64,000 nucleotides of DNA from an uncultured Paraprevotella sp. (GCA_944321565.1 CALULT010000010.1:16-64015); one strand, 5' to 3'. Shown: positions 1 through 16,085, numbered from the stretch's first letter. A program made the numbers and translations. Notes: generated by a model not told the origin, from the sequence alone.

Positions 1-105
1 TTCCAAAGCCTGCATGGTGATGGCGGCGCGCAATGTGTCGGCAAGCGCCCAACCAATAATCTGTCTTTTCCTGATTTCACTAGACACTTTTTTGTTTATA
101 AACTG

Positions 106-275
106 ACTCAAGTTTCGAATTTAGAAATTAGGCCGTTTGGGCGTATGCTCTGAGGGCGGCCAATCCCTTGCCGTTTTCAACGGCCTGCATTGTCAACTCA
201 TCGGAATCCGCATCGATAAGTTTCAGCTACTACACCACGACTTCCACTATAATCTCCTACTTACTTTGTCGAGGT
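106..275 (-). mobile_element. IS4-family IS remnant, copy A (terminal inverted repeat plus about 170 nt of the transposase 3' end)
   Basis: From ACTCAAGTTTCGAATTTAGAAATTAGGC onward it aligns by eye with 15669-15850, with scattered mismatches and one 1-nt indel. The similarity fades around 275. Confidence 0.6.
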
Positions 276-360
276 TGTGCCCCCTTACGACCTTGTTTAT
301 CCACGCCTTTGTGGAATTAAAAATTTCTACGTGAAATGCGAATCTTTCGGCCAAAAACAT

Positions 361-368
361 TATCTTTG
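361..368 (+). promoter_or_regulatory. Bacteroides-type -7 promoter box (TATCTTTG)
   Basis: Exact match to TAnnTTTG, 70 nt upstream of the ATG at 438 and downstream of the track ATG at 336. Confidence 0.45.
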
Positions 369-437
369 CTTTATGGAGATTCATCCGTCCACACGGGAGT
401 GGATGATTGTAATATTAACCTTTTAAATGTATCCATT

Positions 438-1682
438 ATGAAAAGACTTATTACGCTGACATTTGCTGTTTTCGCAATTTCCGAGCTGCAAGCGCAACTT
501 AAAATGTATTCCAACGGAAATGTGGGCATTCAATCCTCTGCCGTCCCCGAGGCCTCCTTGGTCGTGGGAGGGGATGCCAGTCACACAGGGAAGGGATTTA
601 AAAGTTACGTCAAGGCCAACCATTACTTGTTCCATGCAAGACGCGAAGGTGCCTATACTAACTCGGAGCCTTGGCTCGTGGCTTGTGAAGGCAATAATTT
701 TGTGGACGGGATAAACTTTTACATTGGAACAAAAGGATGTGCCTTTTATGACAACCCTGTATCACGAGGACGGGCATGGGGCGTCATAGGCGAAGCCGGA
801 AATGCCACCTCCGGTTTTAACTATGCCGTGCATGGCAATCTGAAGGGAAGTCAATACGGGGCATCCATCTTGGGAACATTGGACGATTTGGACATTTGTG
901 TTCCAGGACGTTATGTAGGTTATTTCATGGGCGATGTCCGCGCAACGGGAAATATTTATGGCACGGTGCTGACCCCTTCGGCATCTAGTTCCGTCTCGAT
1001 GGGACGCTCGGCGGTGATGCCCTTGTCGGTGGAAAGCGATGGTGCGAACAACATGTCGGTGGGAGAGAAATTCTCACGCTTGACGGCTGTGCAGTACAAC
1101 CTGTCTGAACCTCAAATGGCCCAGACTTTTGCTGCGGCGGGCGACACGGCAATGGCTGCCGTCCCGCATTCCGTGACAGACGCGCAGGCTTTGGAGAAGA
1201 CGCACTATGGCTTGGATGCCGAGGTGCTGAAGGAAGTCTATCCGGATTTAGTGTATGAAAGCCAGGAGGGCGACCTTTGCATCAACTATACGGAAATGAT
1301 TCCGTTGCTGGTGCAGTATGTCAACGAACTGCGCGCACAGGTCATTTCTTTGCAAGGGACGCAGGTATATAACGTGCGCAACCAAAGCGAAGAGAAGAGG
1401 AGCGGGAACGATATGTTGGACATGCCCTTGCTGGAACAAAACGACCCGAACCCGTTCACGCAAACAACCGTGGTGCGCTACACATTGCCGGAGAGTGTGC
1501 AATCCGCCTTTTTGTATATTTATGACCTGAACGGGACGCAAATCAACCAAAAAACGTTGGAGGGGCGCGGCAAATCTTCCGTGACGCTCGAAGCCGGAAG
1601 TCTGGCTCCCGGAATGTACTTGTATGCCCTCATTGCCGACGGCAAAGTCATCGACACTAAACGGATGATCATCACCAAGTAG
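438..1682 (+). CDS. Secreted tail-fibre-like protein with an endosialidase-chaperone (peptidase S74)-like domain and a T9SS type A C-terminal sorting domain
   Basis: Track ORF 336..1682. The in-frame ATG at 438 gives the signal peptide MKRLITLTFAVFAISELQAQ. HYGLDAEVLKEVYPDLVYESQEGDLCINYTEMIPLLVQYVNELRAQV resembles the intramolecular chaperone of phage tail fibres. The C-terminus LYIYDLNGTQ...GMYLYALIADGKVIDTKRMIITK is a canonical T9SS CTD. Confidence 0.8.
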   Translation: MKRLITLTFAVFAISELQAQLKMYSNGNVGIQSSAVPEASLVVGGDASHTGKGFKSYVKANHYLFHARREGAYTNSEPWLVACEGNNFVDGINFYIGTKGCAFYDNPVSRGRAWGVIGEAGNATSGFNYAVHGNLKGSQYGASILGTLDDLDICVPGRYVGYFMGDVRATGNIYGTVLTPSASSSVSMGRSAVMPLSVESDGANNMSVGEKFSRLTAVQYNLSEPQMAQTFAAAGDTAMAAVPHSVTDAQALEKTHYGLDAEVLKEVYPDLVYESQEGDLCINYTEMIPLLVQYVNELRAQVISLQGTQVYNVRNQSEEKRSGNDMLDMPLLEQNDPNPFTQTTVVRYTLPESVQSAFLYIYDLNGTQINQKTLEGRGKSSVTLEAGSLAPGMYLYALIADGKVIDTKRMIITK

Positions 1683-1724
1683 GGCGGCCGGACATAATGG
1701 CCGTTCCCTGCGACGTCCGGATGG

Positions 1725-1872
1725 CAAAAACTCCTCCGCCTTGTAGGGGAGAGAACTCGAAGAGCCGGAGGGGTTCCACATACACAAAAGTTACTTTTCA
1801 GTAGGTACACATGTGGACGTGAGCCTCCTCTATCTCTTCGGTGTTTGTCTCCCTGCGAGGCGAGACTGTTTG
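1725..1872. repeat. GC-rich intergenic repeat, copy 1 (second copy at 54342-54530)
   Basis: The cores CCTCCGCCTTG[T/C]AGGGGAG and CTCGAAGAGCCGGAGGGGTT are shared with 54352-54393. A second, looser block (1812-1872) matches 54468-54530. Both blocks have hairpin potential. Confidence 0.6.
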
Positions 1873-1924
1873 GCGATATGCGGAATATTGTATTTAGATT
1901 CTGACAAATTATTAAAAATAAGCT

Positions 1925-3082
1925 ATGAAAAAGATATTATTTTCACTCTTGTGTACAATGGTTATGTTGTGCAGGCTGCAAGCCCAAAACGCCGAAACCC
2001 ATGTGGCGGTATATGCCGGCGGGGCACCCTTGGAAACGTTGCTGACGGAGGCACAGAAACAGTCCGTGACATATTTGGAAATCACCGGAGGAAGTTTGTC
2101 GGACGAGGATTATGCCTTCTTGCGCGACAGTTTGTTGGAACAACTCGACACGTTGGACCTGCGCCATGCGGAGATTGACACCATACCTGCGGATGCTTTG
2201 GGCGAGATGAACCTCTATCTGATTTTGCCGGAAGTGATAGAATGCATCGGGGACTATGCCTTTACGGGAGAATGCGAAGTGACCGGAAACTTCCCTTTTT
2301 TGGGGGAATTTAAACTCGCATATAGTGCCAAGCCGGATTTTATTATAAGCTCTACTAACCCGAAACTTTCTTATGTGCAAAACAAAACTACGGCTTTAAT
2401 ATGTTCCAAAGACGAAGACACGGTTTTCTTTTTCAGATATAGAAATCCCATGTTGTCGCAAGAAGAACTAATCATACCTAAAGGCACAAAAATTATCAAT
2501 GCATCTGCTTATAGAGGAGAAAGTTTGTATCTAACAAACAATATTGTACTACCGGAAAGCCTTGATTCTATTGGAGATTATGCCTTCTCTGACATTTTCC
2601 CGGAAATAATGACGGGACGTAGCACAAAAGGGGAATATCAAAACGGTGGCAGCTACAACATCGGTTCTGTGGTTTGCGAAGCCAAAACGCCACCGAATTT
2701 TGGTAAAATTGGAACAGGAAATTTCATTGGAGACTATTGCTATCTTTACGTTCCTGAAGAAAGTCTTGAGGAGTATAAAAGAGCTAATGGATGGAAACGA
2801 TTCATGGAAGTACGAAGCCTTAAAAATATAATCAATTCTATTACAGAGATTCCAAGCAGACATCGAATAGAACTGACCGTTCTTCCTGAGAAATACATTC
2901 TCGCATTTCCACAAGATGTGAAACACATCAAATTATATGACACACAGGGGCGTATGCTGTCTGACATTCCCATCAAAGGAAAAACAATAGCCATCAATAG
3001 AATGAACTTGCTAAAACCATTTGCAATTACACACATATATTTTGCAGACGGCACAACCGAAACAGTCAAACTAATACCCTAA
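1925..3082 (+). CDS. BspA-type leucine-rich-repeat (LRR_5) secreted protein, paralog 1, with a T9SS-CTD-like tail
   Basis: Signal peptide MKKILFSLLCTMVMLCRLQAQ. Repeated ...IGDYAF... LRR_5 motifs. C-terminus ...KLYDTQGRML...IYFADGTTETVKLIP. Confidence 0.8.
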   Translation: MKKILFSLLCTMVMLCRLQAQNAETHVAVYAGGAPLETLLTEAQKQSVTYLEITGGSLSDEDYAFLRDSLLEQLDTLDLRHAEIDTIPADALGEMNLYLILPEVIECIGDYAFTGECEVTGNFPFLGEFKLAYSAKPDFIISSTNPKLSYVQNKTTALICSKDEDTVFFFRYRNPMLSQEELIIPKGTKIINASAYRGESLYLTNNIVLPESLDSIGDYAFSDIFPEIMTGRSTKGEYQNGGSYNIGSVVCEAKTPPNFGKIGTGNFIGDYCYLYVPEESLEEYKRANGWKRFMEVRSLKNIINSITEIPSRHRIELTVLPEKYILAFPQDVKHIKLYDTQGRMLSDIPIKGKTIAINRMNLLKPFAITHIYFADGTTETVKLIP

Positions 3083-3087
3083 AGATT

Positions 3088-3393
3088 ATGAAACGAAGAG
3101 TAGTTCTAATATTGCTGGCATGGGTCGCGTGTGCGCCCTTCCGAGCACAAATCGGCGGACACGTCGAAGTGAAAGTGGACGAACTGTCTTTTACCCGGCA
3201 GGACGGTTATGACGTCATCCGTTGGAGCGGCGGGACGGACAAGACGCAGGAAGTCGGAGCTCCAGAAATTCCCGTCATCTTCAAAACATACGTGGTGCCT
3301 TTGGAGGCACAGGTAACCGGAGTGGAGGTTTCATCATCCAACCGAATGGCCGTGGAAGGGAACTTTAAACCAACATATAATCTAACCTGCTAA
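3088..3393 (+). CDS. Truncated copy 1 of the C25 peptidase N-terminus (signal peptide plus the first part of the propeptide, 101 aa); intact ORF, possibly a gene remnant
   Basis: The first 93 codons are near-identical to the 5' end of 9093..13820. It diverges after nt 280 into K-P-TYNLTC-stop. Confidence 0.7.
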   Translation: MKRRVVLILLAWVACAPFRAQIGGHVEVKVDELSFTRQDGYDVIRWSGGTDKTQEVGAPEIPVIFKTYVVPLEAQVTGVEVSSSNRMAVEGNFKPTYNLTC

Positions 3394-3405
3394 AAATGAA
3401 AAGAT

Positions 3406-4581
3406 ATGAAAAAGATATTATTTTCAGTCCTGTGCACAATGATTGTGTTGTGCAGGCTGCAAGCCCAAAACGCCGAAACCCATGTGGCGGTACTTGCCGG
3501 CGAAGTACCCTTGGAAACATTGCTGACGGAGATGCAGAAACAGTCCGTGACATATTTGGAAATCACCGGAGGAACTTTGTCGGACAAGGATTATGCCTTC
3601 TTGCGCGACAGCTTGTTGGAACAACTCGACACGTTGGACCTGCGCCATGCGGAGATTGACACCATACCTGCGGATGCTTTGGGCGAAATGAACCTCTATC
3701 TGATTTTGCCGGAAGTGATAGAATGCATCGGGGACTATGCCTTTACGGGAGAATGCGAAGTGACCGGAAACTTCCCCTATATGGGAAAATATAAAAATTC
3801 CCCCTATGACAAACCTTTAATGCAAGCAAGTAAAGACCACCCCAAACTAGTTAATGTAGAAGAACTCTGTTACTTTGCGGTTTATTCCAAAGATGGAAAT
3901 ACACTTTATTATCTAAAACCGAAAGACGAATTCGCTTATTGGGGAGGTGAATTGGAGATACTGCCAAATACGCGAATTATAGCACCAACAGCTATACGGA
4001 ACGAATTGGTGCCTATGGAGGCAAACAATTTAATATTGCCAGAAAGCCTAGATTCCATTGGAGACTACGCATTTGATGTCACCCCAGATTTTATAACGGG
4101 CTATACTAATAAGAAGACTCATTATCCAAGCGGGGGAAATCGTGGCAGAGGAGGCATAGTATGTGAAGCCAAGAATCCTCCCAAATTTGGAATGCTCGGC
4201 AACTCTTTTTGGTTGAAATTCTGCTATTTGTATGTTCCAAAACCTAGTCTTGAGGCTTACAAAGCCGCTCCGGGATGGAAACTTGCACAAAAAATAGATA
4301 CGATAGAGAACCTTTTGAAGGGAGCCCAAAGTATATCATCCGTTCCTGGAGAGGGGGCAACATATGTTTCCATCACATCAACGGATGAAAACTACATCTT
4401 GTCTTTTTCAAAAGAACCCTTGCAGATGGATTTGTTTTCGGCAGACGGAAGCTTGCTCTCTTCCCAGATGGTTTCTTCCATGATGGTCACACTGCCTAAA
4501 ACAAACCTAAAAAAAACATTAACCATAGCCCATGTCCGTTTTGCGGACGGGACGAATGAAACAGTCAAACTAATGCCATAA
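3406..4581 (+). CDS. BspA-type LRR secreted protein, paralog 2
   Basis: Same signal peptide and N-terminal block as the other paralogs. IGDYAF motifs. Tail ...VRFADGTNETVKLMP. Confidence 0.8.
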   Translation: MKKILFSVLCTMIVLCRLQAQNAETHVAVLAGEVPLETLLTEMQKQSVTYLEITGGTLSDKDYAFLRDSLLEQLDTLDLRHAEIDTIPADALGEMNLYLILPEVIECIGDYAFTGECEVTGNFPYMGKYKNSPYDKPLMQASKDHPKLVNVEELCYFAVYSKDGNTLYYLKPKDEFAYWGGELEILPNTRIIAPTAIRNELVPMEANNLILPESLDSIGDYAFDVTPDFITGYTNKKTHYPSGGNRGRGGIVCEAKNPPKFGMLGNSFWLKFCYLYVPKPSLEAYKAAPGWKLAQKIDTIENLLKGAQSISSVPGEGATYVSITSTDENYILSFSKEPLQMDLFSADGSLLSSQMVSSMMVTLPKTNLKKTLTIAHVRFADGTNETVKLMP

Positions 4582-4586
4582 TAATT

Positions 4587-4892
4587 ATGAAACGAATAAT
4601 ACCTTTAATATGTCTGCTCTTGGCGGGATATCTGCCTGTCCGCGCCCAAATAGGCGGAATGGTCGAAGTGAATGTGAATGAATTGTATTTTTCCAAACAG
4701 GACAGTTACGATATGATTCGTTGGACTGGAGGAAATGACAAAATTCGTCAGGTTGGTGCTCCAGAACTTCCCGTTATCTTCAAAACTTACGTGGTGCCTT
4801 TGGAGGCACAGGTAACCGGGGTGGAAGTTTCATCATCCAACCGGATGGCCGTGGAAGGGAACTTTAAACTAACATATAATCTAACCCGCTAA
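4587..4892 (+). CDS. Truncated copy 2 of the C25 peptidase N-terminus, with a divergent 5' half (101 aa)
   Basis: MKRIIPLICLLLAGYLPVRAQ... differs at about 23 of the first 55 residues (manual alignment). It is identical from GAPELPVIF to F93 and has the same junction at nt 280. Confidence 0.7.
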   Translation: MKRIIPLICLLLAGYLPVRAQIGGMVEVNVNELYFSKQDSYDMIRWTGGNDKIRQVGAPELPVIFKTYVVPLEAQVTGVEVSSSNRMAVEGNFKLTYNLTR

Positions 4893-4904
4893 AAATGAAA
4901 AGCT

Positions 4905-6092
4905 ATGAAAAAGATGTTATTTTCAGTCTTGTGCACAATGATTGTGTTGTGCAGGCTGCAAGCCCAAAACGCCGAAACCCATGTGACGGTATATGCCGGC
5001 GGGGCACCCTTGGAAACGTTGCTGACGGAGGCGCAGAAACAATCGGTGAAACATTTGACGATTATCGGGACATTGCAAGATATGGATTATATCTTTTTGC
5101 GGGAGAATTTGTATCCACAGTTGGATACACTGGACTTACGAGAAGTGAATGTTGATACGTTGCCGAATATAAGAGTTGAAGATTATTCGCCGAAACCAAA
5201 CTATAACAAAGTCCATCTTGTTTTACCTATGAATATTGAATATATAGGAGCAAATTTCTTATATCAATTTTCTCGTTGTTATAGTTTGGAGGTGACTGGG
5301 AATTTTCCGGAATTCGGAGAAAGTGTTTACAGTATTCCGCAGTCTGGTGAAGTGAAAGTCTCATTGAGTGATGATAACTTTTCTTATATAACAAAGACAT
5401 TCAATTTTTTCGATGAATGGATTTCAGAAACCTATTCTTCAATATATTCATTAAATGAAGATACCCTTTATTACATGAACATGCCTGTGGACGGGAACTA
5501 TGTCATAAAGGAAGGTACAAAAGTCATTCATGGAACTGCATTTAGGAACCTTGGCTTTCCAACGTTTACGCTTATATTTCCTGCAACTCTGGATTCTATT
5601 GGAGACTATGCGTTTGAGCACACGGAATGTCCTGTTCCGACGAGTTATATTACTGGGGTCGGTGCATTGATTCTATGTTATGCGGTAGAACCTCCGAAAT
5701 TAGGGAAAGATGTTTTTAAAAATAGTGTATTAGGATCATCTATTTTATATGTACATGAGGCAAGTATCGAAAAATACAAAAATGCTAAAGATTGGAATCA
5801 AGCAGTGGAAATTCGTGCCATAGAAGAGATTGGAGCGCCGCCAAGTCGGATTTCTACACAAGTACAAAAGAAAAAAATATCTATCAAGGCTATGCCAAAT
5901 TCTTATGAACTGAATTTTGGTCAAGAGCCACTCTATATGGAGATGTACAGCACGAATGGGATATTGCTTACCAAGCGGTCTGTGGGCTCATCCACATTGT
6001 CTATCGACCGGAACCAATTAGTGTCTCCTTTTATCATTATGCTTGTTCGTTTTGCAGACGGCACAACCGAAACAGTCAAACTAATACCATAA
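4905..6092 (+). CDS. BspA-type LRR secreted protein, paralog 3 (most divergent core)
   Basis: It shares only about the first 48 residues and the last about 15 residues (RFADGTTETVKLIP) with the other paralogs. IGDYAF and IGANFL LRR motifs. Confidence 0.8.
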   Translation: MKKMLFSVLCTMIVLCRLQAQNAETHVTVYAGGAPLETLLTEAQKQSVKHLTIIGTLQDMDYIFLRENLYPQLDTLDLREVNVDTLPNIRVEDYSPKPNYNKVHLVLPMNIEYIGANFLYQFSRCYSLEVTGNFPEFGESVYSIPQSGEVKVSLSDDNFSYITKTFNFFDEWISETYSSIYSLNEDTLYYMNMPVDGNYVIKEGTKVIHGTAFRNLGFPTFTLIFPATLDSIGDYAFEHTECPVPTSYITGVGALILCYAVEPPKLGKDVFKNSVLGSSILYVHEASIEKYKNAKDWNQAVEIRAIEEIGAPPSRISTQVQKKKISIKAMPNSYELNFGQEPLYMEMYSTNGILLTKRSVGSSTLSIDRNQLVSPFIIMLVRFADGTTETVKLIP

Positions 6093-6097
6093 AGATT

Positions 6098-6403
6098 ATG
6101 AAACGAAGAATAGTTCTAATATTGCTGGCATGGGTCGCGTGTGCGCCCTTCCGAGCACAAATAGGCGGACACGTCGAAGTGGAAGTGGACGAACTGTCTT
6201 TTACCCGGCTGGACGGTTATGACATCATCCGTTGGAGCGGCGGGACGGACAAGACGCCGGAAATCGGAGCTCCGGAGCTTCCCGTTATCTTCAAAACATA
6301 CGTGGTGCCTTTGGAGGCACAGGTAACCGGAGTGGAAGTTTCATCATCCAACCGAATGGCCGTGGAAGGGGACTTTAAACTAACATATAATCTAACCTGC
6401 TAA
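6098..6403 (+). CDS. Truncated copy 3 of the C25 peptidase N-terminus (101 aa)
   Basis: Near-identical to the first 93 codons of 9093..13820, with the same junction. Confidence 0.7.
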   Translation: MKRRIVLILLAWVACAPFRAQIGGHVEVEVDELSFTRLDGYDIIRWSGGTDKTPEIGAPELPVIFKTYVVPLEAQVTGVEVSSSNRMAVEGDFKLTYNLTC

Positions 6404-6415
6404 AAATGAAAAGCT

Positions 6416-7579
6416 ATGAAAAAGATGTTGTTATTAATCTTGTGCACAATGGTTATGTTGTGCTGGCTGCAAGCCCAGAACGCCGAAACCCATGTGACGG
6501 TATATGCCGGCGGGGCACCCTTGGAAACGTTGCTGACGGAAGCACAGAAACAGTCCGTGACATATTTGGAAATCACCGGAGGGACTTTGTCGGACAAGGA
6601 CTATGTCTTCTTGCGCGACAGTTTGTTGGAACAACTCGACACGTTGGACCTGCGCCATGCGGAGATTGACACCATACCTACGGACGCTTTGGGCGAAATG
6701 AACCTCTATCTGATTTTGCCGGAAGTGATAGAATGCATCGGGGACTATGCCTTTACGGGAGAATGCGAAGTGACCGGAAACTTCCCCTATATGGGAGAAT
6801 ATAAAAATTCCCCCTATGACAAACCTTTAATGCAAGCAAGTAAAGACCACCCCAAACTAGTTGATGTAGAGGAACTCTGTTACTTTGCGGTTTATTCCAA
6901 AGACGGAAATACACTTTATTATCTAAAACCGAAAGAATATGTTTATTGGGGAGAAGATGTGATAATACAAACGGGTACACGGGTTATTGCTCCAACAGCT
7001 ATAAGAAATATGGATTTTCCTATAGAAATAATTAATTTGGTATTACCGGAAAGCATAGATTCCATCGGAGATTATGCTCTTGATATAAGACCGAATTTTA
7101 TGACAGGGTATAGTAGAAATAGGCGATATCCGAGTGGGGGATACTATGGTTACGGAAGTGTAATATGTGAAGCCAAAGATCCTCCCAAATTGGGTGAGTT
7201 GGGAGAGAATTTTTGGGTAGCACGTTCTAATCTATATGTCCCAAAGGCAAGCCTAGAGGCTTATAAAGATGCACCGGGATGGAATCTGGCAAGAGAAATC
7301 CTTTCAATAGAAAAACTCCTGGGAGTGGATGTTCCTTCTCTACGCAAAAAAGATGAAACAGCCATCTCCGTTACTTCCACTACGGAAAGTTACATTCTGA
7401 CTCTTTCTAAGAAACCTTTGCAGATGAATTTGTTGAATGTGGACGGGCGTGTCTTTGATGTGCAGACAGTATATTCCACAAAGATTATGCTCTCCAAGAA
7501 GCTTTTGCAAAATCCCATGACTTTAATACAAATCCGTTTTGCAGACGGCACAACCGAAACAGTCAAACTAATACCTTAA
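6416..7579 (+). CDS. BspA-type LRR secreted protein, paralog 4
   Basis: It shares about 170 N-terminal residues with paralog 2, then diverges. Tail IRFADGTTETVKLIP. Confidence 0.8.
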   Translation: MKKMLLLILCTMVMLCWLQAQNAETHVTVYAGGAPLETLLTEAQKQSVTYLEITGGTLSDKDYVFLRDSLLEQLDTLDLRHAEIDTIPTDALGEMNLYLILPEVIECIGDYAFTGECEVTGNFPYMGEYKNSPYDKPLMQASKDHPKLVDVEELCYFAVYSKDGNTLYYLKPKEYVYWGEDVIIQTGTRVIAPTAIRNMDFPIEIINLVLPESIDSIGDYALDIRPNFMTGYSRNRRYPSGGYYGYGSVICEAKDPPKLGELGENFWVARSNLYVPKASLEAYKDAPGWNLAREILSIEKLLGVDVPSLRKKDETAISVTSTTESYILTLSKKPLQMNLLNVDGRVFDVQTVYSTKIMLSKKLLQNPMTLIQIRFADGTTETVKLIP

Positions 7580-7584
7580 AGATT

Positions 7585-7890
7585 ATGAAACGAAGAATAG
7601 TTCTAATATTGCTGGCATGGGTCGCGTGTGCGCCCTTCCGAGCACAAATAGGCGGACACGTCGAAGTGGAAGTGGACGAACTGTCTTTTACTCAGCAGGA
7701 CGGTTATGACATCATCCGGTGGAGCGGTGGAACGGACAAGACGCAGGAAGTCGGAGCTCCAGAACTTCCCGTTATCTTCAAAACATACGTGGTGCCTTTG
7801 GAGGCACAGGTAACCGGAGTGGAGGTTTCATCATCCAACCGAATGGCCGTGGAAGGGAACTTTAAACTAACATATAATCTAACCTGCTAA
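7585..7890 (+). CDS. Truncated copy 4 of the C25 peptidase N-terminus (101 aa)
   Basis: Near-identical to the first 93 codons of 9093..13820, with the same junction. Confidence 0.7.
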   Translation: MKRRIVLILLAWVACAPFRAQIGGHVEVEVDELSFTQQDGYDIIRWSGGTDKTQEVGAPELPVIFKTYVVPLEAQVTGVEVSSSNRMAVEGNFKLTYNLTC

Positions 7891-7902
7891 AAATGAAAAG
7901 AT

Positions 7903-9087
7903 ATGAAAAAGATATTATTTTCACTCTTGTGTACAATGGTTATGTTGTGCAGGCTGCAAGCCCAGAACGCCGAAACCCATGTGACGGTACTTGCCGGCGA
8001 AGCGCCCTTGGAAACGTTGCTGACGGAGGCGCAAAAACAGTCCGTGACATATTTGGAAATCACCGGAGGAACTTTGTCGGACGAAGACTATGCCTTCTTG
8101 CGCGACAGCTTGTTGGAACAGCTTGACACGTTGGACCTGCGCCATGCGGAGATTGACACCATACCTGACTATGCTTTCGACCGCTACTTGCCGGAGACTC
8201 TTTGTTTCATATTACCTGAAGACATTCAATATGTAGGAAACAGTGCTTTCTCAACCACCAATTGGTACACTTTAGTCATAACAGGAAATTATCCTATTTT
8301 TGGGGAGAGGCTAGAAACATACATAAACCATATTCATATTGAAGCGAGTGATGACAACAAATATTGTAAAAATGTCATCCAAGAGAATGAATACCCCTAT
8401 TTATCCGTTTATTCGCGAGATGAAGAAATTCTCTATTTTATTAATGCACAATATGGGGTCTTTGAAGTCAAAAGCGGCACAAAACAGATTCATAGTTCTG
8501 CGTTTCAAGGAATCGTCCTTGCGTATCAGTGTACTTTGGTGTTTCCTTCATCTATAGACAGTATAGGAGATTACGCATTCAAAAGTACAGGTATAAATAT
8601 GCCAACAGGAAGCTATTCCAGAAATTATAACTTTCCTTTTAAGGATGGATGTGCCAGCCGTATAATCTGTGAAAGCGAAAATCCGCCTTCATTGGGAAAG
8701 GACGTATTTTATAACAGTTTTTATTATGATGAAGCCTGCCTTTATGTGCCAAAGAAAAGTCTTGAAACATACCGTAACACCCCAGGGTGGAATGAAGCAA
8801 AAAAAATCCGCGCCATAGAAGACATAGGCAAGGGAAGCTCCATCTTTGGTGGCAAAAAAACATCGCGGTTGGCCGTGCAAATAGATGGTGGTATTTATAC
8901 GATAAACTCATCCTGTGAAATTCAGTCAGTATCTTGCTATGACACCGCAGGACGTTTGTTGCCCATTCAGACAGGAAAGGATGCCCAATCATTTACGATG
9001 AGGAAAGCAAACATTACAAAACCTTACATACTGGTTCGTGTTCGTTTTGCAGACGGCACAACCGAAACAGTCAAACTAATACCCTAA
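7903..9087 (+). CDS. BspA-type LRR secreted protein, paralog 5
   Basis: It shares about 87 N-terminal residues (to LDLRHAEIDTIP) with the other paralogs. Tail VRFADGTTETVKLIP. Confidence 0.8.
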   Translation: MKKILFSLLCTMVMLCRLQAQNAETHVTVLAGEAPLETLLTEAQKQSVTYLEITGGTLSDEDYAFLRDSLLEQLDTLDLRHAEIDTIPDYAFDRYLPETLCFILPEDIQYVGNSAFSTTNWYTLVITGNYPIFGERLETYINHIHIEASDDNKYCKNVIQENEYPYLSVYSRDEEILYFINAQYGVFEVKSGTKQIHSSAFQGIVLAYQCTLVFPSSIDSIGDYAFKSTGINMPTGSYSRNYNFPFKDGCASRIICESENPPSLGKDVFYNSFYYDEACLYVPKKSLETYRNTPGWNEAKKIRAIEDIGKGSSIFGGKKTSRLAVQIDGGIYTINSSCEIQSVSCYDTAGRLLPIQTGKDAQSFTMRKANITKPYILVRVRFADGTTETVKLIP

Positions 9088-9092
9088 AGATT

Positions 9093-12000
9093 ATGAAACG
9101 AAGAATAGTTCTAATATTGCTGGCATGGGTCGCGTGTGCGCCCTTCCGAGCACAAATCGGCGGACACGTCGAAGTGGAAGTGGACGAACTGTCTTTTACC
9201 CAGCAGGACGGTTATGACGTCATTCGTTGGAGCGGTGGAACGGACAAGACGCAGGAAGTCGGAGCTCCGGAGCTTCCCGTCATCTTCAAAACATACGTGG
9301 TGCCTTTGGAGGCACAGATAACCGAAGTGGAAGTTTCATCATCCGACCGGATGGCCGTGGAAGGGAACTTTACGCCCTATCCCGTGCAACCGGCGGTACC
9401 AACAGACGGAACCCACGAAGTCCAGTTCACGCAACCGAAAGTTTCCATTTATCAAGGAACGGAGGTCTATCCGCAAGCAAAAGCGCAAATCGTGGCAGAC
9501 TACAATGAAATGGGATACCATTTGGTCACCGTGCAACTCAATCCGGTGGAATTCGATCCGGTTTCGCGGAAACTATTCGTCAGCCGTTTGGATTTCACAT
9601 TGCAATACGAAATGACCGCAAGCAATGCCGTACACCCCCTGCAACAGACTACGCGCCGCGCTAATATCATCAAAAAGGCCATCCGCGCCATGGTGGACAA
9701 CCCGGAAGACGTGGACGGCTTCATGAACCGCAAAGTGGAATTGGTTGGAATGGCAATGCCGGACGCGCAAACTCTCGCTGCGTCTTCTTCCTTGACAATC
9801 AACGTAATCCAAGAGCAGATTCCGGACTACATCATCATTACCAACAATGCGCTGAAAGGTGAATTCCAGCGTCTCGCCGACTGGAAAACGCAAAAGGGAG
9901 TGCCGACGTTAATCAAAGACATTGAAAGCATTGGAGAGGAATATCAGGGTTCGGATCTAGCAGAGAAAATACATGCTTATTTGCAGGAATGCTATCGCAA
10001 GTGGGGAGCCGGGCTGTTCGTGTTGCTGGGTGGGGATGTGAATATCATACCGGCAAGATGTTATATTTACTCAAATGCAGAATATCCATCCGATGCTTAT
10101 TATACAGACCTAGAATGCGATTGGAATGCCAACAAAAATCACATTTACAAAGAGCCCAATGATGGCATGAATATGGATCGGCTTTGCTATTTGGGACGCG
10201 CATCCGTAGAGAATAAGCAAGAAGCTAATGCCTTTATCAATAAGGTGCTCTTGTACGAGAAAATGGCGAATGCAAATACAAGCTATTTGATGAATCACTT
10301 GGCAGTTTCCGCTTATATTTCGAAAAATGAAACCACAGGATGGCTTTATTATGGCGGACAAGAGGATATTGATGACTATCTTTCCTCTCATTTCCAAGTC
10401 CACAAATGGTATTTGTTTGACCATTACAATTGCGATTGCTCCTTTCATAATCCAACCAAAAAGTTTGATTGCGGGGAAGAATTAAATAGGGAACATTTCC
10501 TTTCCGCCCTCCAAGACGGAGGAAATTCCGGATTGGGGCATTTCCATATCGTCTATCACATGGATCATTGCAACCCGCGCAACATGGCGGCTTCTTCCAT
10601 AGACAAGCATGAATACGTTTATATCCAAGACGTAGAAAACCTGAGGAACGAAGACTACCCTTTCATTATGATTTCCGGAGGATGCAAACCCGCAAAATTC
10701 GATGAAGATTGCATAGCGGAACATTTCCTGACGAATCCTTATGGCGGCGCGGTGGCATTTATTGGTAATGCAAATATTGGTTATGCGGATGAGCATAACC
10801 AATATCGAATTTTTTTAACTGCATTGTATAATGAACAGATTCGTTATTTAGGAATTCTTTTTAATCGAATGATTAATAAAGATACTAAATATGACCTTCA
10901 TGACTATTACCGCCTCCATCTTTTAGGCGACCCTGAAATGCCGATATGGTCTGCCGTGCCACAAACCTTGCAAGTGAACGTGTCCCCCACGCAAATGGAG
11001 TCCGGCACAAACAACATCATGGTGCAAGTCGCCAACCTGCCGGCTGGGGAAGAAGCCACGGTCTGCCTCATGAAGGACGCGGAGGCATATACTGTGGTGA
11101 CCGTGAACGACACGCGGCCGCATAGTTTCAGCTTCAGCCCGAAGACAGCAGGAGAAATAACCGTGACCGTGACGGCTCGCAACTTTCTGCCATTTGAAAA
11201 AGCGGTACCGGTGTCGGTAAACCATGGCAATTTGCTTTCCATCGGACAAATCAATGGATTTGATGGATACGTGTTGGCAGGAACAGAACGGGAATTCGAC
11301 ATCGTGCTAAGAAACAACGGGCAAACGGCAGCAGGGAACGTGACGGCCACTTTGTCCTCGTCCTCCCCTTATGTGACGGTCACCCAGGGGACGGTGAACT
11401 ACGGCACAATAAGTGCCGGGCAGTCCAAGACCGGGACAGGAAAATTCAAAGTACAAATCTCCGCAGACGCGCCAGAAACGGGGCGCAACGAATGGAACGC
11501 CCCTTGCTTCTACCTGACGATGGAAAAGGACGGGACGGAGACAACGGACGTGGACACGTTCAAAGTGGATGTGAAGCACTACAAGTACAGAATTGCCCGC
11601 CTCGCCCTTGCTTCGGGTGCCACCCTGAAACCGGGCGGGCAGATTACGATGAACCTGTACTCGGAGAATCTGGGGGATGCGGCTTCATCAGCTCCGCATT
11701 GGAAGGTTACGCCGCTAGAACCGGCAAAAGCGACGGTAGTCCAAACCACCGCTTCCACTTGCATTTGCACCCTTACGGAAGATTATGAAGCCGGCAGCCG
11801 TCTGCCAATCAAAGTACAGCTCTATGTAGGCGACATGCTGCAAGACGAAGTGACTTGGAACGTGGCGGAAAAAGCCGTGCCGGTGGACTTGTCGAAATTG
11901 GTGTCCGAACTGGATGCCGAAGCCATTTCTTTCCATTGGGACAAAATGGGAGGGGAAGACAAATACAATGTTTACCGCAGCACCTCGGAGGCCGGACCTT

Positions 12001-13820
12001 ACCTCAAACTCAACTCTCTTCCGCTGGAAACCAGGTATTACAAGGACGAAGGACTGCAACCCTTGACCACTTACTATTACAAGTTCTCCACACTGACGCA
12101 GGGAATGGTGGAAAGCAACCTGTCTCCAGCCCTACGCACATGGACGACCTATCCGGCCATGGACATGTTCCCGCTCTCCATGGGGATGAGCCTGCACTAT
12201 GCCTGCGAGACGCACACGGCCGATTTCGACTACGACGGGCAAAAGGAAATCTTCCTTACGGGATATACGGATGAAGGGACGGAAGCGCTCTTGGTCGCCA
12301 TCCGGCCGGACGGCACGGAACCTTACGACCTGGACGGAAACGTCACTTCATACAGCGGATATGCGGAAATCCCATTCCGCACGGACGCAACCCCAGTGGT
12401 GGCCGACCTCTTGGGCAACGGTGAGCCGTGCATTATCGTGCCCACGAGGAACAGCAATGGGGACAATTACGTCATCTGCTACTCCTCGTTGGACAAGGAT
12501 GGGGACAAGCTGCCGGACAAACTGTGGGAAACTTCCATCGGGAATATGCCTTCTTATCGCAGTGTGGTGGTCACAGACATAGACATGCCGGACGGGAAAG
12601 GCGAAAAGGAAATCATCCTGCGGGGAGAAAATGGCAATGCCCCGGTCATCGTGCTGGATGCTTACGGGAAAGAAAAGATGCGCACCGCGAACACTGTGGG
12701 CAGTTTTTACGGTGTTCCGGCCGTGGCCGACCTTGATGGTGACGGTTACAAGGAAATCATCTGCGGAACCGAAGCCGGGCAAGTGTACGTGTGGCGGCAC
12801 AACGGCAGCACTTACCTCCGTTCGCCCTTCTTCTCCCACGCGGGAGAGAAACTGAACTGCTCCCCCACGGTCTGCGACCTGGACGGCGACGGCAAGAAGG
12901 AAATCCTCATCACGACAAGGACCACGACCTTGAGCTACATCTATGCCATCAAGCAGGACGGCACCTGCGTGGGGAACTTCGACCGCGAGGCGGCGCAGCC
13001 CGTTTCCATTCCTTATACGGATGCGTCGGGTAGCGGAATCGAGCATCCCGTCAGTGTGGGCGACATCAATGGCGACGGCGACTTGGAGGTAGTCGCCATC
13101 GGGCACGAATGCGTAAGGGCATGGACGCATACGGGTACGTTGATTTTCGACCGTGCCATCCCCGGCCTGTGCCCGGACAAGGAATGGGCCATCAACCTGA
13201 CGTGTCCCCTGTTGGCCGACGTGGACGGCGACGGTGACATTGACATCGTGTTCCATCAGGACAATCTGATTTACGCCCTGCACCACGACGGGACAGACGT
13301 GAAAGGCTTCCCGTTGTCTGCGCCGGCCAATATCAGCAACGGGATTTGTGTGTCGGACATGGACGGCGACGGGAAAAACGAGATTGTTTCCGCAGACGAC
13401 AGCGGCAACATCTGCGCTTGGAAGACAGACGGGAAATCCACTGCCATCGAATGGGGACGCGCCCGCTTCGACACGGGATTCACCGGAGAATACATCCCGC
13501 ATTATGAAGACCCGAAAGTGGTCACCACATCCACGGAATGGGGCGGAGGACAGTTCAACAACGACCTCATCATACGCGGCGGCACGTTTAAAATCCCGGC
13601 CGGGAAGACCTTGCTGATGCGCGAGGGGTGCCGGATTCATGTGCTCGAAGGAGGGACACTGGACGTGGATGGCGGCACGGTGGAAAATGCCGACATCCTG
13701 CTGAAACCCGGCAGCGTGTTGAATGTCAAGAACAATGGCTATGTGCTTCTCAACCGACATGGGAAACTCGATGCCGAACAAGGCGCAACCGTCAATGCCT
13801 TGTATGGGGAAGTGCGTTAG
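9093..13820 (+). CDS. Gingipain-like C25 family cysteine peptidase (1575 aa): propeptide, C25 catalytic domain, Ig/Fn3-like domains and an FG-GAP/VCBS beta-propeller
   Basis: PDYIIITNNALKGEFQRLADWKTQKGV, GLGHFHIVYHMDHC (putative catalytic His region) and IMISGGCKPAKFDED (putative catalytic Cys) are C25-like. ISFHWDKMGGEDKYNVYRS looks Fn3-like. At least 8 repeats of the type DLDGDGKKEI / DVDGDGDIDIV / DMDGDGKNEIV are FG-GAP-like. Confidence 0.85.
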   Translation: MKRRIVLILLAWVACAPFRAQIGGHVEVEVDELSFTQQDGYDVIRWSGGTDKTQEVGAPELPVIFKTYVVPLEAQITEVEVSSSDRMAVEGNFTPYPVQPAVPTDGTHEVQFTQPKVSIYQGTEVYPQAKAQIVADYNEMGYHLVTVQLNPVEFDPVSRKLFVSRLDFTLQYEMTASNAVHPLQQTTRRANIIKKAIRAMVDNPEDVDGFMNRKVELVGMAMPDAQTLAASSSLTINVIQEQIPDYIIITNNALKGEFQRLADWKTQKGVPTLIKDIESIGEEYQGSDLAEKIHAYLQECYRKWGAGLFVLLGGDVNIIPARCYIYSNAEYPSDAYYTDLECDWNANKNHIYKEPNDGMNMDRLCYLGRASVENKQEANAFINKVLLYEKMANANTSYLMNHLAVSAYISKNETTGWLYYGGQEDIDDYLSSHFQVHKWYLFDHYNCDCSFHNPTKKFDCGEELNREHFLSALQDGGNSGLGHFHIVYHMDHCNPRNMAASSIDKHEYVYIQDVENLRNEDYPFIMISGGCKPAKFDEDCIAEHFLTNPYGGAVAFIGNANIGYADEHNQYRIFLTALYNEQIRYLGILFNRMINKDTKYDLHDYYRLHLLGDPEMPIWSAVPQTLQVNVSPTQMESGTNNIMVQVANLPAGEEATVCLMKDAEAYTVVTVNDTRPHSFSFSPKTAGEITVTVTARNFLPFEKAVPVSVNHGNLLSIGQINGFDGYVLAGTEREFDIVLRNNGQTAAGNVTATLSSSSPYVTVTQGTVNYGTISAGQSKTGTGKFKVQISADAPETGRNEWNAPCFYLTMEKDGTETTDVDTFKVDVKHYKYRIARLALASGATLKPGGQITMNLYSENLGDAASSAPHWKVTPLEPAKATVVQTTASTCICTLTEDYEAGSRLPIKVQLYVGDMLQDEVTWNVAEKAVPVDLSKLVSELDAEAISFHWDKMGGEDKYNVYRSTSEAGPYLKLNSLPLETRYYKDEGLQPLTTYYYKFSTLTQGMVESNLSPALRTWTTYPAMDMFPLSMGMSLHYACETHTADFDYDGQKEIFLTGYTDEGTEALLVAIRPDGTEPYDLDGNVTSYSGYAEIPFRTDATPVVADLLGNGEPCIIVPTRNSNGDNYVICYSSLDKDGDKLPDKLWETSIGNMPSYRSVVVTDIDMPDGKGEKEIILRGENGNAPVIVLDAYGKEKMRTANTVGSFYGVPAVADLDGDGYKEIICGTEAGQVYVWRHNGSTYLRSPFFSHAGEKLNCSPTVCDLDGDGKKEILITTRTTTLSYIYAIKQDGTCVGNFDREAAQPVSIPYTDASGSGIEHPVSVGDINGDGDLEVVAIGHECVRAWTHTGTLIFDRAIPGLCPDKEWAINLTCPLLADVDGDGDIDIVFHQDNLIYALHHDGTDVKGFPLSAPANISNGICVSDMDGDGKNEIVSADDSGNICAWKTDGKSTAIEWGRARFDTGFTGEYIPHYEDPKVVTTSTEWGGGQFNNDLIIRGGTFKIPAGKTLLMREGCRIHVLEGGTLDVDGGTVENADILLKPGSVLNVKNNGYVLLNRHGKLDAEQGATVNALYGEVR

Positions 13821-13831
13821 CCTTTACACAG

Positions 13832-13870
13832 CGGGACGGCCAGGATTGAAACCTGCGCCGTCCCGTTTTT
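13832..13870 (+). terminator. Rho-independent terminator after the C25 gene
   Basis: CGGGACGG (13832-13839) pairs with CCGTCCCG (13858-13865), followed by TTTTT. Confidence 0.7.
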
Positions 13871-13944
13871 CAAACCAAGGATAGGAATGCCATGGGCAGA
13901 CATACTTACTTGCCTAAGTAAGATATCCTCCATTTTGTACCCTT

Positions 13945-13968
13945 ACTCAAAATTCGAATTTAGGAATA
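13945..13968. repeat. Solo IS-end-like sequence (copy C of the IS4-family terminal repeat)
   Basis: ACTCAAAATTCGAATTTAGGAATA matches the termini at 106 and 15669 at about 20 of 24 positions. There is no similarity beyond that. Confidence 0.4.
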
Positions 13969-14024
13969 TTACTCAAAGCCATAAGCACAATTACAAAAAC
14001 CCCATCAGAGATCCGCAAGTTTTT

Positions 14025-14738
14025 TTATAAAAAAAGCCGATATGATAGTTGTTTTACTATTAGACCAAACAACGTTGCTATTCCAAAGCTTAGCAGTGTT
14101 CCTGCCAGCACATATTCCGTTTTAGCTGTATCTGTTTCTTTAAAGCGGAGTAAAGATTTCGCTGCTACAATAAACCCCACAGCTTCATATTGACCCATCA
14201 GGACAAAGACCATTGTAAGTATCCTTTCCAAGTTACCAATTAACGCCCCTGCATTCTTTATACTTAGGCAAGACTCCGCATCGCCAATTTTATACTTGTC
14301 TAAAATTAACTTGATAAAAATGTTAGTAGGCTTTAAGCAACATAGAATTGCAAATGCAAATAAAGGGATAGATAAAGTATGAAGAAAATCGATGCTTTGG
14401 ATTGGCAGACGGGATGTCGGCATATATTGGCATGAAATAAAGCATAAGATTAATATATGTGCAAATTGGTCCGTCAGGAAAGACCATAGCCCCCTGCACA
14501 TATATGTTTTCATTGTATCAATCACCCAATGTGTGCCTCCTATGATTAGAGCAAAAATTCCAAAATCAGCAAACGGAACAAAAGCCCAAGAAAGTAATCC
14601 TACGATAACTGAATGAATATAGAGGAACGGACTTTTGATTTTCAACAGTTCTTTCTGCTTGCAATATTTATCGCTTTGCAGGTAGAAATCTCCAACTATA
14701 TGAGCCGTCAATAAGCTCAATAATAACCAGCTATTCAT
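14025..14738 (-). CDS. DUF3307-family multi-pass membrane protein
   Basis: About 7 hydrophobic segments. Conserved-looking His/Asp motifs AHIVGDFYLQ, THWVIDTMK and DQFAHI. Its ATG overlaps the upstream gene's TGA in an ATGA junction at 14735-14738. Confidence 0.7.
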   Translation of the reverse strand: MNSWLLLSLLTAHIVGDFYLQSDKYCKQKELLKIKSPFLYIHSVIVGLLSWAFVPFADFGIFALIIGGTHWVIDTMKTYMCRGLWSFLTDQFAHILILCFISCQYMPTSRLPIQSIDFLHTLSIPLFAFAILCCLKPTNIFIKLILDKYKIGDAESCLSIKNAGALIGNLERILTMVFVLMGQYEAVGFIVAAKSLLRFKETDTAKTEYVLAGTLLSFGIATLFGLIVKQLSYRLFL

Positions 14739-15394
14739 ACGTTTTCAAAATTTAGTTGTTCAAAATAGCTCAATGCTTCCTCTATACAGTACCATTTGGC
14801 CGAAGTCGAGTGTTGGTTTATTCCAGACTGTTTTACGCCCAATATGTCTGCAATTTCCTGCTCGCTTTTAGATAAAAGTTTATAATAAATGACTTCGCTT
14901 TGCCGTTTCGTTGCATTATTGAGCAAGGCGTCCGTCAACATACCGACGGTCTGTAAAGCAGGTTTAAGTTGCTTATCAGCCGGTTCTATGAGGAATGTAC
15001 CGTTTTTGTTAGGAGAACCCATCCCGTCTAATGTCCTGCCTGACAAATAAATAGCCTCTCCATCCATTATGCCGTTTTCCTTATCTACAATACGCATATC
15101 ACCTATTCCCATAGCCATACGGATTCCATATATTTGGAATAGTTTTTTCTTTTTTGATTCTGAGATAGGGAACGACTTAATGCAACTCTTGATAATTAGA
15201 GCAGCCCTAAAGCCGTCCTTAGTTGATGGCAACAGGCACTCCATATAATCCCCTTTTATTAGCCTGCCCCAAAATCCGGGAAATCTCTTTTCAAAAATAG
15301 AAAATAAATCTTCTATTCTCTGTTTTAACGCAATGGTTTCCTCTATGCACAAAGATGTGGAAGAAACAATATCGGCAGAAATAGCTGCATACAT
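14735..15394 (-). CDS. SatD-family protein: nucleotide-cyclase-like N-terminal domain plus a C-terminal sigma70-r4/LuxR-like helix-turn-helix
   Basis: AISADIVSST ... GRLIKGDYMECL ... IRMAMGIGDMRIV ... DGEAIYLSGRTLD resembles the class III cyclase/GGDEF fold motif order. The C-terminus SEQEIADILGVKQSGINQHSTSAKW is HTH-like. Confidence 0.65.
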   Translation of the reverse strand: MYAAISADIVSSTSLCIEETIALKQRIEDLFSIFEKRFPGFWGRLIKGDYMECLLPSTKDGFRAALIIKSCIKSFPISESKKKKLFQIYGIRMAMGIGDMRIVDKENGIMDGEAIYLSGRTLDGMGSPNKNGTFLIEPADKQLKPALQTVGMLTDALLNNATKRQSEVIYYKLLSKSEQEIADILGVKQSGINQHSTSAKWYCIEEALSYFEQLNFENV

Positions 15395-15423
15395 AGATTG
15401 ATTCTAATTGATTACTATGAATG

Positions 15424-15431
15424 CAAAAGTA
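15424..15431 (-). promoter_or_regulatory. Bacteroides-type -7 box (TACTTTTG on the minus strand)
   Basis: Exact TAnnTTTG match, 30 nt upstream of the ATG at 15394. Confidence 0.45.
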
Positions 15432-15458
15432 CAAATAATATTTCTACCAGCCAGGGAT

Positions 15459-15480
15459 TTATAAGTTAAATAACTTATAA
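15459..15480. promoter_or_regulatory. Perfect 10-2-10 palindrome, candidate operator
   Basis: TTATAAGTTA-AA-TAACTTATAA, about 65-85 nt upstream of the SatD-like gene. Confidence 0.45.
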
Positions 15481-15668
15481 TAGTCAGACATAAGCAATTT
15501 GACTTATTATGTAAGCATATAAGGTTAACCTCTTATTTCCCATTATTTATGAGAACCTCCAGCCGCCTACTAATAATCAGAAGTTTCCATTATGATAAGC
15601 TGAAAAAGAAATAGGATAAAGTGTGACACTAAAATGGCGCTAAAATTTACAATGCCATCTAATTATAT

Positions 15669-16085
15669 ACTCAAGTTTCGGATTTAGAAATTAGGCAGTT
15701 TGGGCGTAGCTCTGAGTGCAGCCAACCTCTTGTCGTTCTCAAGAACCTGCATAGTCAGCTCGTCTGAGTCCGCCCCGATAAGTTCTGCTACCACCGCCAC
15801 GACTTCCACTATAATCCCCCATATTTTCTCGACGACAGTCAGCTCATGAACTCCCATGTATATGTCTTCGAACAGCCCTCAGATGGTGTCGTAGTCAAGC
15901 GTCCTCTTTATGGAAGCGAGCATGTTATAGCGTATCATGACCAATGACACATGGGCTATGTGTGCGGAAAAATCGCGTGAAGAGCAGTCGGCGAGCCCGG
16001 GCATCCGCTTGCTGTCGGAGAAGAAGACCTCGATGCTCCGGCGCATTGAGTAGATTTCATAGGCGCACATGAATTCGGCATCCAA
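15669..16085 (-). pseudogene. IS4-family DDE transposase, C-terminal fragment plus IS terminus (copy B)
   Basis: ORF 15879..16085 carries the IS4 Y(2)R(3)E(6)K signature (YSMRRSIEVFFSDSK). It has no N-terminal DDE region. The reading frame breaks at 15879 while the similarity to copy A continues down to the terminus at 15669. Confidence 0.75.

Follow-up and report, generated by a model that had tools for sequence, protein, structure and literature searches.

A stretch of 64,000 nucleotides from an uncultured Paraprevotella sp. (GCA_944321565.1, CALULT010000010.1:16-64015; hereafter the window) carries an array of leucine-rich repeat (LRR) genes that ends in a full-length gene for a gingipain-family C25 peptidase, here called C25. 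Between the successive LRR genes of this array lie four small open reading frames (ORFs), F1 to F4, each of which reproduces the beginning of the C25 gene, signal peptide included, and closes with a short tail. In our view it is likely that these fragments are remnants of the junctions at which LRR cassettes were amplified in tandem, and that exchange with C25 is the main reason why they stay intact. The fragments share a single junction, they exchange sequence with full-length C25 genes, their number varies with the architecture of the array, relatives of the locus lack them, and what they encode is a truncated fold. An original prediction, made from the window alone, had named recently formed remnants as one possibility, next to secreted decoys or modulators of the C25 enzyme and translational-coupling spacers for the LRR genes; the remnant explanation is well supported by the single junction, by the identity of the 5' parts of F2 and F3 to full-length genes, by the variable copy number and by sister species that have no such ORF.

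A single junction within a repeated block

The ORF list contains the four intact, ATG-started frames of 101 amino acids that had been predicted on the + strand, beginning at 3088, 4587, 6098 and 7585, and their coordinates reproduce the spacing described for them, with 5 nt between an LRR stop codon and the ATG of the fragment and 12 nt between the end of the fragment and the next LRR start codon (4/4 fragments). The gap between the last LRR gene, cassette E, and full-length C25 also measures 5 nt. Residues 1-93 of the fragments (nt 1-280) match the N-terminus of C25, with 91-100% nucleotide identity to the 5' ends of full-length C25 genes, and the homology ends abruptly after GGGAACTTTA. As the signal peptide takes up 21 of these residues, 72 propeptide residues are left, in agreement with the predicted number. 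Past the breakpoint, each fragment continues for eight codons to a TAA stop codon; the tail, which had been proposed to be shared, is not uniform in sequence, reading KPTYNLTC in F1, KLTYNLTR in F2 and GDFKLTYNLTC in F3. A similar correction applies to the signal peptide quoted for the copies, MKRRIVLILLAWVACAPFRAQ, which is exact in F3 and F4, while F1 carries the substitution I5V and F2 has a distinct signal peptide, MKRIIPLICLLLAGYLPVRAQ; F2 and F4 share only 76% protein identity. A fusion of fragment and LRR protein by read-through or frameshift was considered and dropped, since the 12-nt spacer, although in frame, contains TAA and TGA.

The fragments are embedded in a larger conserved block. 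Alignment by script of the five 1.5-kb units of the array revealed a segment of ~650 bp that starts ~40 nt before the end of an LRR gene, runs through the C25 fragment and 38 nt of tail and leader, and reaches ~300 nt into the next LRR gene. Identity between units is 80-96% in this block, whereas it is only 29-64% in the central 900 bp of the LRR genes. At the protein level, cassettes A, B, D and E share 82-91% of their N-terminal 100 residues with one another, and 66-67% with cassette C. Tandem Repeats Finder, run on positions 1-16000, returned nothing relevant, because the repeat period exceeds the limit of the tool.

To this we added 42 loci of the same species, all from independent gut-type metagenome assemblies, which were gathered via a protein search with F4, a cluster listing and genomic context look-ups, and which hold 62 fragment instances with 11 distinct nucleotide sequences. 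The F4 search returned short relatives only, the cluster listing contained dozens of 101-residue variants, and a protein identical to F1 is present on 32 contigs. The breakpoint at nt 280/281 is common to 62/62 instances, which come from about 40 contigs, and to 11/11 distinct sequences. All of them are intact, so that the predicted lack of frameshifts and premature stops extends from the window to the sampled loci.

Exchange with C25 genes and variation of the array

Across these loci, variants are shared patchwise between fragments and full-length genes. Over nt 1-175, F2 is identical to the full-length C25 found after cassette B in locus L020, but the two differ at 15 sites over nt 176-279, and F2 is therefore a crossover product. 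For F3 and the full-length C25 found after cassette C in L022, the corresponding counts of differences are 0 and 2; between F4 and the window's own C25 they are 5 (nt 1-175) and 8 (nt 176-279). The 5' part of a fragment travels with its upstream cassette and is interchangeable with the 5' end of a full-length C25 gene; the 'type 2' N-terminus of F2, for its part, resembles the C25 N-terminus of a sister species. Working C25 5' ends are therefore turned into fragments, and fragments back into working 5' ends, via recent homologous recombination. Given such exchange with full-length genes, neither the ATG, the signal peptide and the open frame nor a low ratio of nonsynonymous to synonymous substitution rates (dN/dS) requires selection on the fragment itself. 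The original prediction had suggested dN/dS across the copies as a check on function, and the pairwise values between the window copies, at 0.1-0.5, are indeed not close to 1; they are confounded, because the variation comes from full-length genes, and we rejected them as evidence of selection once F2 and F3 had been found to match full-length 5' ends of other strains.

The array itself occurs in at least eight architectures, with 0-4 fragments per strain and constant flanking genes. With Por denoting the upstream gene for a protein with a type IX secretion system (T9SS) sorting domain, A to E the LRR cassettes and f a fragment, these are Por-C-C25, in which C25 is cut by an insertion sequence (IS) element, Por-A-f-B-C25, Por-B-f-C-C25, Por-D-f-C-C25, Por-A-f-B-f-C-C25, Por-B-f-C-f-D-f-E..., Por-A-f-B-f-C-f-D-f-E-C25 (the window and L030), and other orders, such as C-f-B-C25 and f-A-f-C. 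The five-cassette order of the window recurs in independent samples (L030, L031), and several architectures were obtained from more than one sample.

Relatives of C25 at 68-72% protein identity are found in loci of the same plan, consisting of a Por_Secre_tail protein, one to five LRR genes and C25. In 25 related Bacteroidales-type loci, tblastn detected no upstream copy of the C25 N-terminus; these include L014 with one LRR gene, L015 with two LRR genes 4 nt apart, and the Bacteroides nordii-like L017 with five LRR genes separated by 21-nt gaps, none of which has a C25-derived ORF. The fragment as query found no relative among the GTDB species genomes, and a GTDB scan with the C25 alignment yielded no locus above 54% identity, the matches being in Paraprevotella, Prevotella, Xylanibacter and other genera. 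In a sister species (L015 and L130-L136, human gut according to the record names), which has one to three LRR cassettes per strain, the internal LRR junctions keep only the first 10 nt of C25 (ATGAAACGAA; for example L015 8805-8841). These 10 nt are in frame with the next LRR gene (MKRNVEQKQTA-MKRILL...), resulting in an 11-residue extension of the called LRR protein (L015, L130-L136). With this second junction, which has its own breakpoint, it appears that duplication of the cassette next to C25 has repeatedly captured the C25 start as a by-product.

The cassettes, in turn, seem to be older than the block that joins them. In their central regions, cassette A is 63% identical to the second LRR gene of L015, cassette B 70% to the single LRR gene of L014, cassette C 67% to the first LRR gene of L015, and cassette D 69-70% to both cassette B and the LRR gene of L014. 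Orthologous centres (63-70%) combined with homogenised N-termini (82-91%) indicate that the block spread among older, diverged cassettes by concerted evolution. Cassette E stands apart from A-D in that neither sister species has a gene close to it (<=37% in the central region). In the Candidatus Azobacteroides metagenome-assembled genome of L060, a 425-aa gene before C25 shares the 21-residue signal peptide of C25 with 95% identity (MKTKLYFIAIFLFAGIYA..., 8719-8784 and 10001-10066), and the starts of the two genes appear to have exchanged sequence.

We propose that a single illegitimate join would have fused C25 nt 280 to the sequence beginning 38 nt before an LRR start codon; it would have arisen as a duplication breakpoint or, alternatively, when part of an older LRR-C25 repeat was deleted. 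The join would have created the ~650-bp block, which now represents the homology common to all units, and homologous recombination within this block, including recombination between a fragment and the full-length C25 5' end of another chromosome or strain, would add, remove and reorder cassettes. Each crossover of this kind would convert the 5' end of a working C25 gene to a fragment, or a fragment to such an end, such that the fragments would be continually renewed from a gene that is under selection.

The predicted product and competing explanations

The original prediction had cautioned that the fragments are shorter than a complete prodomain, and this is the case, as they hold 72 of about 180-200 residues. 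In the AlphaFold2 model of C25, the prodomain spans approximately residues 20-200 and has about ten strands, and the breakpoint at residue 93 follows strand 5: strands 20-27, 33-38, 41-46, 64-70 and 74-89 precede it, while strands 131-139, 142-149, 152-155, 160-174 and 184-186 and the helix 187-200 follow it. Modelled alone with the same alignment, as had been suggested, the 101-residue product (pTM 0.52) shows no compact fold, keeping only the 33-38/41-46 hairpin, with a tail pLDDT of <60. The remaining strands evidently need partners from the missing half, as judged from a comparison of the DSSP strings of the full-length and isolated models, which makes the strand pairing soft evidence. In RgpB, the inhibitory loop that enters the active site comprises residues about 126-132 (PMC13366090); as residues 21-186 of C25 align with residues 22-190 of 4ief_A in the profile alignment, the position of this loop falls past residue 93 and thus outside the fragments.

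Searches for domains in the fragments gave no Pfam or NCBIfam match at E <= 0.01, Propeptide_C25 included, and no T9SS sorting domain (Por_Secre_tail/TIGR04183) was found in the fragments, the LRR proteins or C25, the only one being that of the gene at 438-1682. The signal peptide of the fragments ends in RAQ and is followed by IGG, which we take to fit cleavage by signal peptidase I before Gln, as in Bacteroidetes signal peptides. A lipoprotein reading based on Cys15 was dropped, as the Cys is absent from type 2 and from the relatives. We infer that the product, once translated, would follow the Sec route and be cleaved before Gln21, giving an 80-residue peptide, which would probably stay in the periplasm; this half of a β-sandwich, devoid of the inhibitory loop, would probably be functionless and degraded.

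Changes private to the fragments were counted by considering only variants unseen in any sampled full-length gene. In the exchangeable part (nt 1-175), the fragments have 8 synonymous and 7 nonsynonymous private changes, a synonymous excess with P = 0.03, and in the junction-proximal part and tail (nt 176-303) they have 2 and 6, which fits the neutral expectation of 28% synonymous changes. Three nonsynonymous changes among the copies, L95P, L99P and C101R, fall in the tail. The full-length genes have 5 synonymous and 8 nonsynonymous private changes, a ratio from which the overall ratio of the fragments is indistinguishable (Fisher P = 0.72).

Some of these results weigh against the view that the fragments are junction remnants maintained by exchange. 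The synonymous excess in nt 1-175 is nominally significant, and there is not one broken copy in 11 distinct sequences: a crude neutral model, with an indel rate of 2 indels per 15 substitutions taken from a nearby 242-nt intergenic region, gives a probability of 0.43 for the absence of stops and of about 0.08 for the absence of indels, or about 0.03 for both together. These signals also fit selection on an open, translated frame and leave room for it, though they do not demonstrate it; both are weakened by the fact that 'private' variants may derive from unsampled full-length alleles. To the same side belongs the consideration that short-read metagenome assemblies of repeats can be chimeric, though the main architectures recur independently.

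Selection on the frame could act through translation rather than through the product. In such a spacer ORF, the peptide would be inert, and translation of the 306 nt would couple the LRR genes to each other and also shield a long polycistronic transcript from decay or premature termination. Translational coupling is plausible from the layout of the locus, with its gaps of 5 nt and 12 nt. Each fragment is preceded by 40 nt that nearly match those ahead of the C25 start, so that, if this mRNA serves for the translation of C25, the fragments are probably translated as well. No Bacteroidetes-type -7 motif (TAnnTTTG) was found on the + strand in the gaps between genes over 1683-9100, and promoter and terminator scans gave nothing above chance inside the array and no terminator-like hairpin between genes; on this weak negative evidence, the array looks like one transcription unit, and the LRR cassettes and C25 probably share one transcript. 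Relatives likewise hold their LRR genes 4-21 nt apart, and the lack of stops and frameshifts in 62 instances, with its low joint probability under neutrality, points in the same direction. However, recent derivation from full-length genes already accounts for intactness, at least for F2 and F3, and the neutrality test suffers from the small sample as well as from unsampled alleles. We thus regard a selected spacer as unlikely. A broader proposal strikes us as just as doubtful, namely that the stub is a selected 'universal linker', whose translation would keep the long LRR operon expressed and which would at the same time provide portable homology for splicing 'cassette-C25' ends into any array; if it were true, gut Prevotella-like bacteria would vary their LRR surface proteins via recombination. 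In a bolder version, the exported half-prodomain may also tune the maturation of the C25 peptidase.

We give considerably less credit to a functional mini-prodomain, in which the exported 80-residue peptide would act in trans with either C25 or the LRR proteins as its target, in the case of C25 by inhibiting the enzyme, serving as a decoy or assisting its folding. Complete gingipain propeptides of about 200 residues do inhibit their cognate enzymes in trans as separate recombinant proteins (PMC3677877, PMC4138498), and small inhibitor genes, those of the potempins, adjoin peptidase genes in another Bacteroidota species (PMC9890683). The intact signal peptides and the low pairwise dN/dS of the fragments would suit such a role, but import from full-length genes accounts for the dN/dS signal, and the peptide has neither the residues of a complete prodomain nor the region aligned to the inhibitory loop of RgpB. 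Its isolated model retains a single hairpin, its unique tail is variable and predicted to be disordered, and it matches no Pfam, NCBIfam or T9SS sorting-domain model. A copy number of 0-4 across strains, and sister species with the same LRR-C25 locus but without a fragment, are further arguments against it, and the secreted decoy or modulator of the original prediction is not supported. Finally, it is highly improbable that the fragments are an assembly artefact caused by misjoined reads: the 650-bp repeats are difficult for short-read assemblers at their level of identity, but the same junction and cassette orders recur in dozens of independent assemblies from different studies, and the copies differ at many sites, consistently and in linkage to their cassette.

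The locus and its place among known systems

Table 1. Genes, fragments and repeat blocks at the C25 locus of the window
Feature	Position	Strand	Basis or remark
Upstream gene with T9SS C-terminal sorting domain	438..1682	+	Pfam Por_Secre_tail, TIGR04183
LRR cassette A (BspA-type), 385 aa	1925..3082	+	Pfam LRR_5, 28.8 bits
Conserved block, first copy	3043..3705	+	Identity profile of five 1.5-kb units
Fragment F1, 101 aa	3088..3393	+	nt 3088-3367 = C25 nt 1-280; nt 3368-3393 = tail KPTYNLTC + stop
LRR cassette B, 391 aa	3406..4581	+	ORF list
Conserved block, further copies	about 4542-5204, 6053-6715, 7540-8202	+	Identity profile
Fragment F2, chimera, 101 aa	4587..4892	+	nt 1-175 'type 2' C25 5' end; nt 176-280 common fragment type; tail KLTYNLTR
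LRR cassette C, 395 aa	4905..6092	+	ORF list, Pfam
Fragment F3, 101 aa	6098..6403	+	C25 5' end comparison
LRR cassette D, 387 aa	6416..7579	+	ORF list
Fragment F4, 101 aa	7585..7890	+	C25 nt 1-280 + tail
LRR cassette E, 394 aa	7903..9087	+	Pfam LRR_5, 36.7 bits
Conserved block, partial copy ahead of full-length C25	9048-9372	+	Identity profile
Full-length C25 (gingipain-family) peptidase, 1575 aa, C-terminal FG-GAP region	9093..13820	+	Pfam, profile search, AlphaFold2 model

The LRR_5 threshold of Pfam is reached or approached by three of the five cassette proteins, which are of the BspA type. Upstream of the array, the gene with the T9SS sorting domain is the same left neighbour in all related loci; its ORF is listed from 336 in the window, the probable true start being 438 (MKRLITL..., with the signal-peptide-like sequence MKRLITLTFAVFAISELQAQ), and a TAnnTTTG motif lies ahead of this start at 361-368. 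Other strains have a VapE-like/DUF3874 gene upstream of the locus, and some of them also integrase-core (rve) ORFs (L020 5057-6364; L022 736-3327); a mobile element may border the array.

Full-length C25 is recognised by Pfam as Peptidase_C25 (165 bits), with FG-GAP_3 and Propeptide_C25 (22.4 bits, cut-off 22) as further matches, and its H492 and C531 occupy invariant alignment columns. An AlphaFold2 model of residues 1-640 has a pLDDT of 89 and a pTM of 0.88, and Foldseek matches it to the catalytic domains and prodomains of Kgp and RgpB; compared with the RgpB and Kgp prodomains (4IEF, 5MUN), the C25 prodomain reaches target-normalised TM-scores of 0.65-0.68 over about 175-200 residues. The profile search relates the N-terminal domain to the same prodomains with E = 2e-8 to 2e-14 over about residues 14-186. 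Among strains (window, L020, L022, L039) the C25 gene is a mosaic, in which 300-nt segments (about nt 900-1200 and 1500-2100) are 66-84% identical and the remainder 95-100%, which suggests that diverged C25 alleles recombined within the prodomain and the catalytic region. In several contigs, C25 is called as two overlapping ORFs of 672 and 916 or of 210 and 1389 amino acids (L001 4977-9742; L041 7606-12371), which represent frameshifted alleles or sequencing errors; the 672-residue form occurs on 8 contigs. In some strains, the IS element that cuts C25 does so near nt 175 and carries Transposase_mut (IS256-type) ORFs (L013 1898-3343; protein P0128). The strain of L013 has a single cassette and zero fragments.

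With the gingipain prodomains (RgpB, 4IEF chain A; Kgp, 5MUN; PF08126) the fragments share their descent, their source being codons 1-93 of a C25 gene, but they hold only about 40% of the domain and lack the inhibitory loop, the second half of the sandwich and the catalytic domain. Potempins of Tannerella forsythia resemble them in being encoded by ORFs of ~100 residues that adjoin genes for secreted peptidases in a Bacteroidota operon. Potempins are reported to be outer-membrane lipoproteins, each a specific inhibitor of its neighbouring peptidase (PMC9890683), whereas the fragments, set apart by signal and model, have a signal-peptidase-I type signal, an unconserved Cys and no compact modelled fold, and are truncated copies of the enzyme's own prodomain. 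The locus plan recurs in other Bacteroidales, where BspA-type LRR arrays stand before C25/FG-GAP genes (L017 and L054, Bacteroides nordii-like); those arrays, unlike the window, have clean gaps of 4-21 nt and no C25-derived ORF.

The nearest mechanistic analogues are the orphan toxins of Rhs systems (PMC3967940), the effector-displacement arrays of the type VI secretion system in V. cholerae (PMC5361080) and the immunity paralogues of the type VII secretion system (PMC9484751), which likewise consist of diverged tandem cassettes, separated by pieces of a neighbouring gene that are used as recombination homology, and which vary between strains. In contrast to these, the piece found here is the 5' end of the downstream gene, complete with start codon and signal peptide, and forms a full small ORF; moreover, the cassettes encode LRR surface proteins beside a peptidase, not toxins or immunity proteins, such that the analogy is one of mechanism, not of homology.

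Nothing in these results shows that the fragments are a new class of secreted regulator. They do call for caution: repeated small ORFs can owe their intact frames, signal peptides and low dN/dS to continual exchange with a working gene, even when they have no function. The finding would gain in interest if translation of the stubs, and an effect of theirs on operon expression or on peptidase maturation, were demonstrated. As it stands, the locus provides a natural example of recombination through a shared linker, with one to five cassettes for LRR surface proteins in varied orders, in uncultured gut Bacteroidales. Two sister species have come to the same outcome via different breakpoints, which may be of interest for work on surface variation in the gut microbiota.

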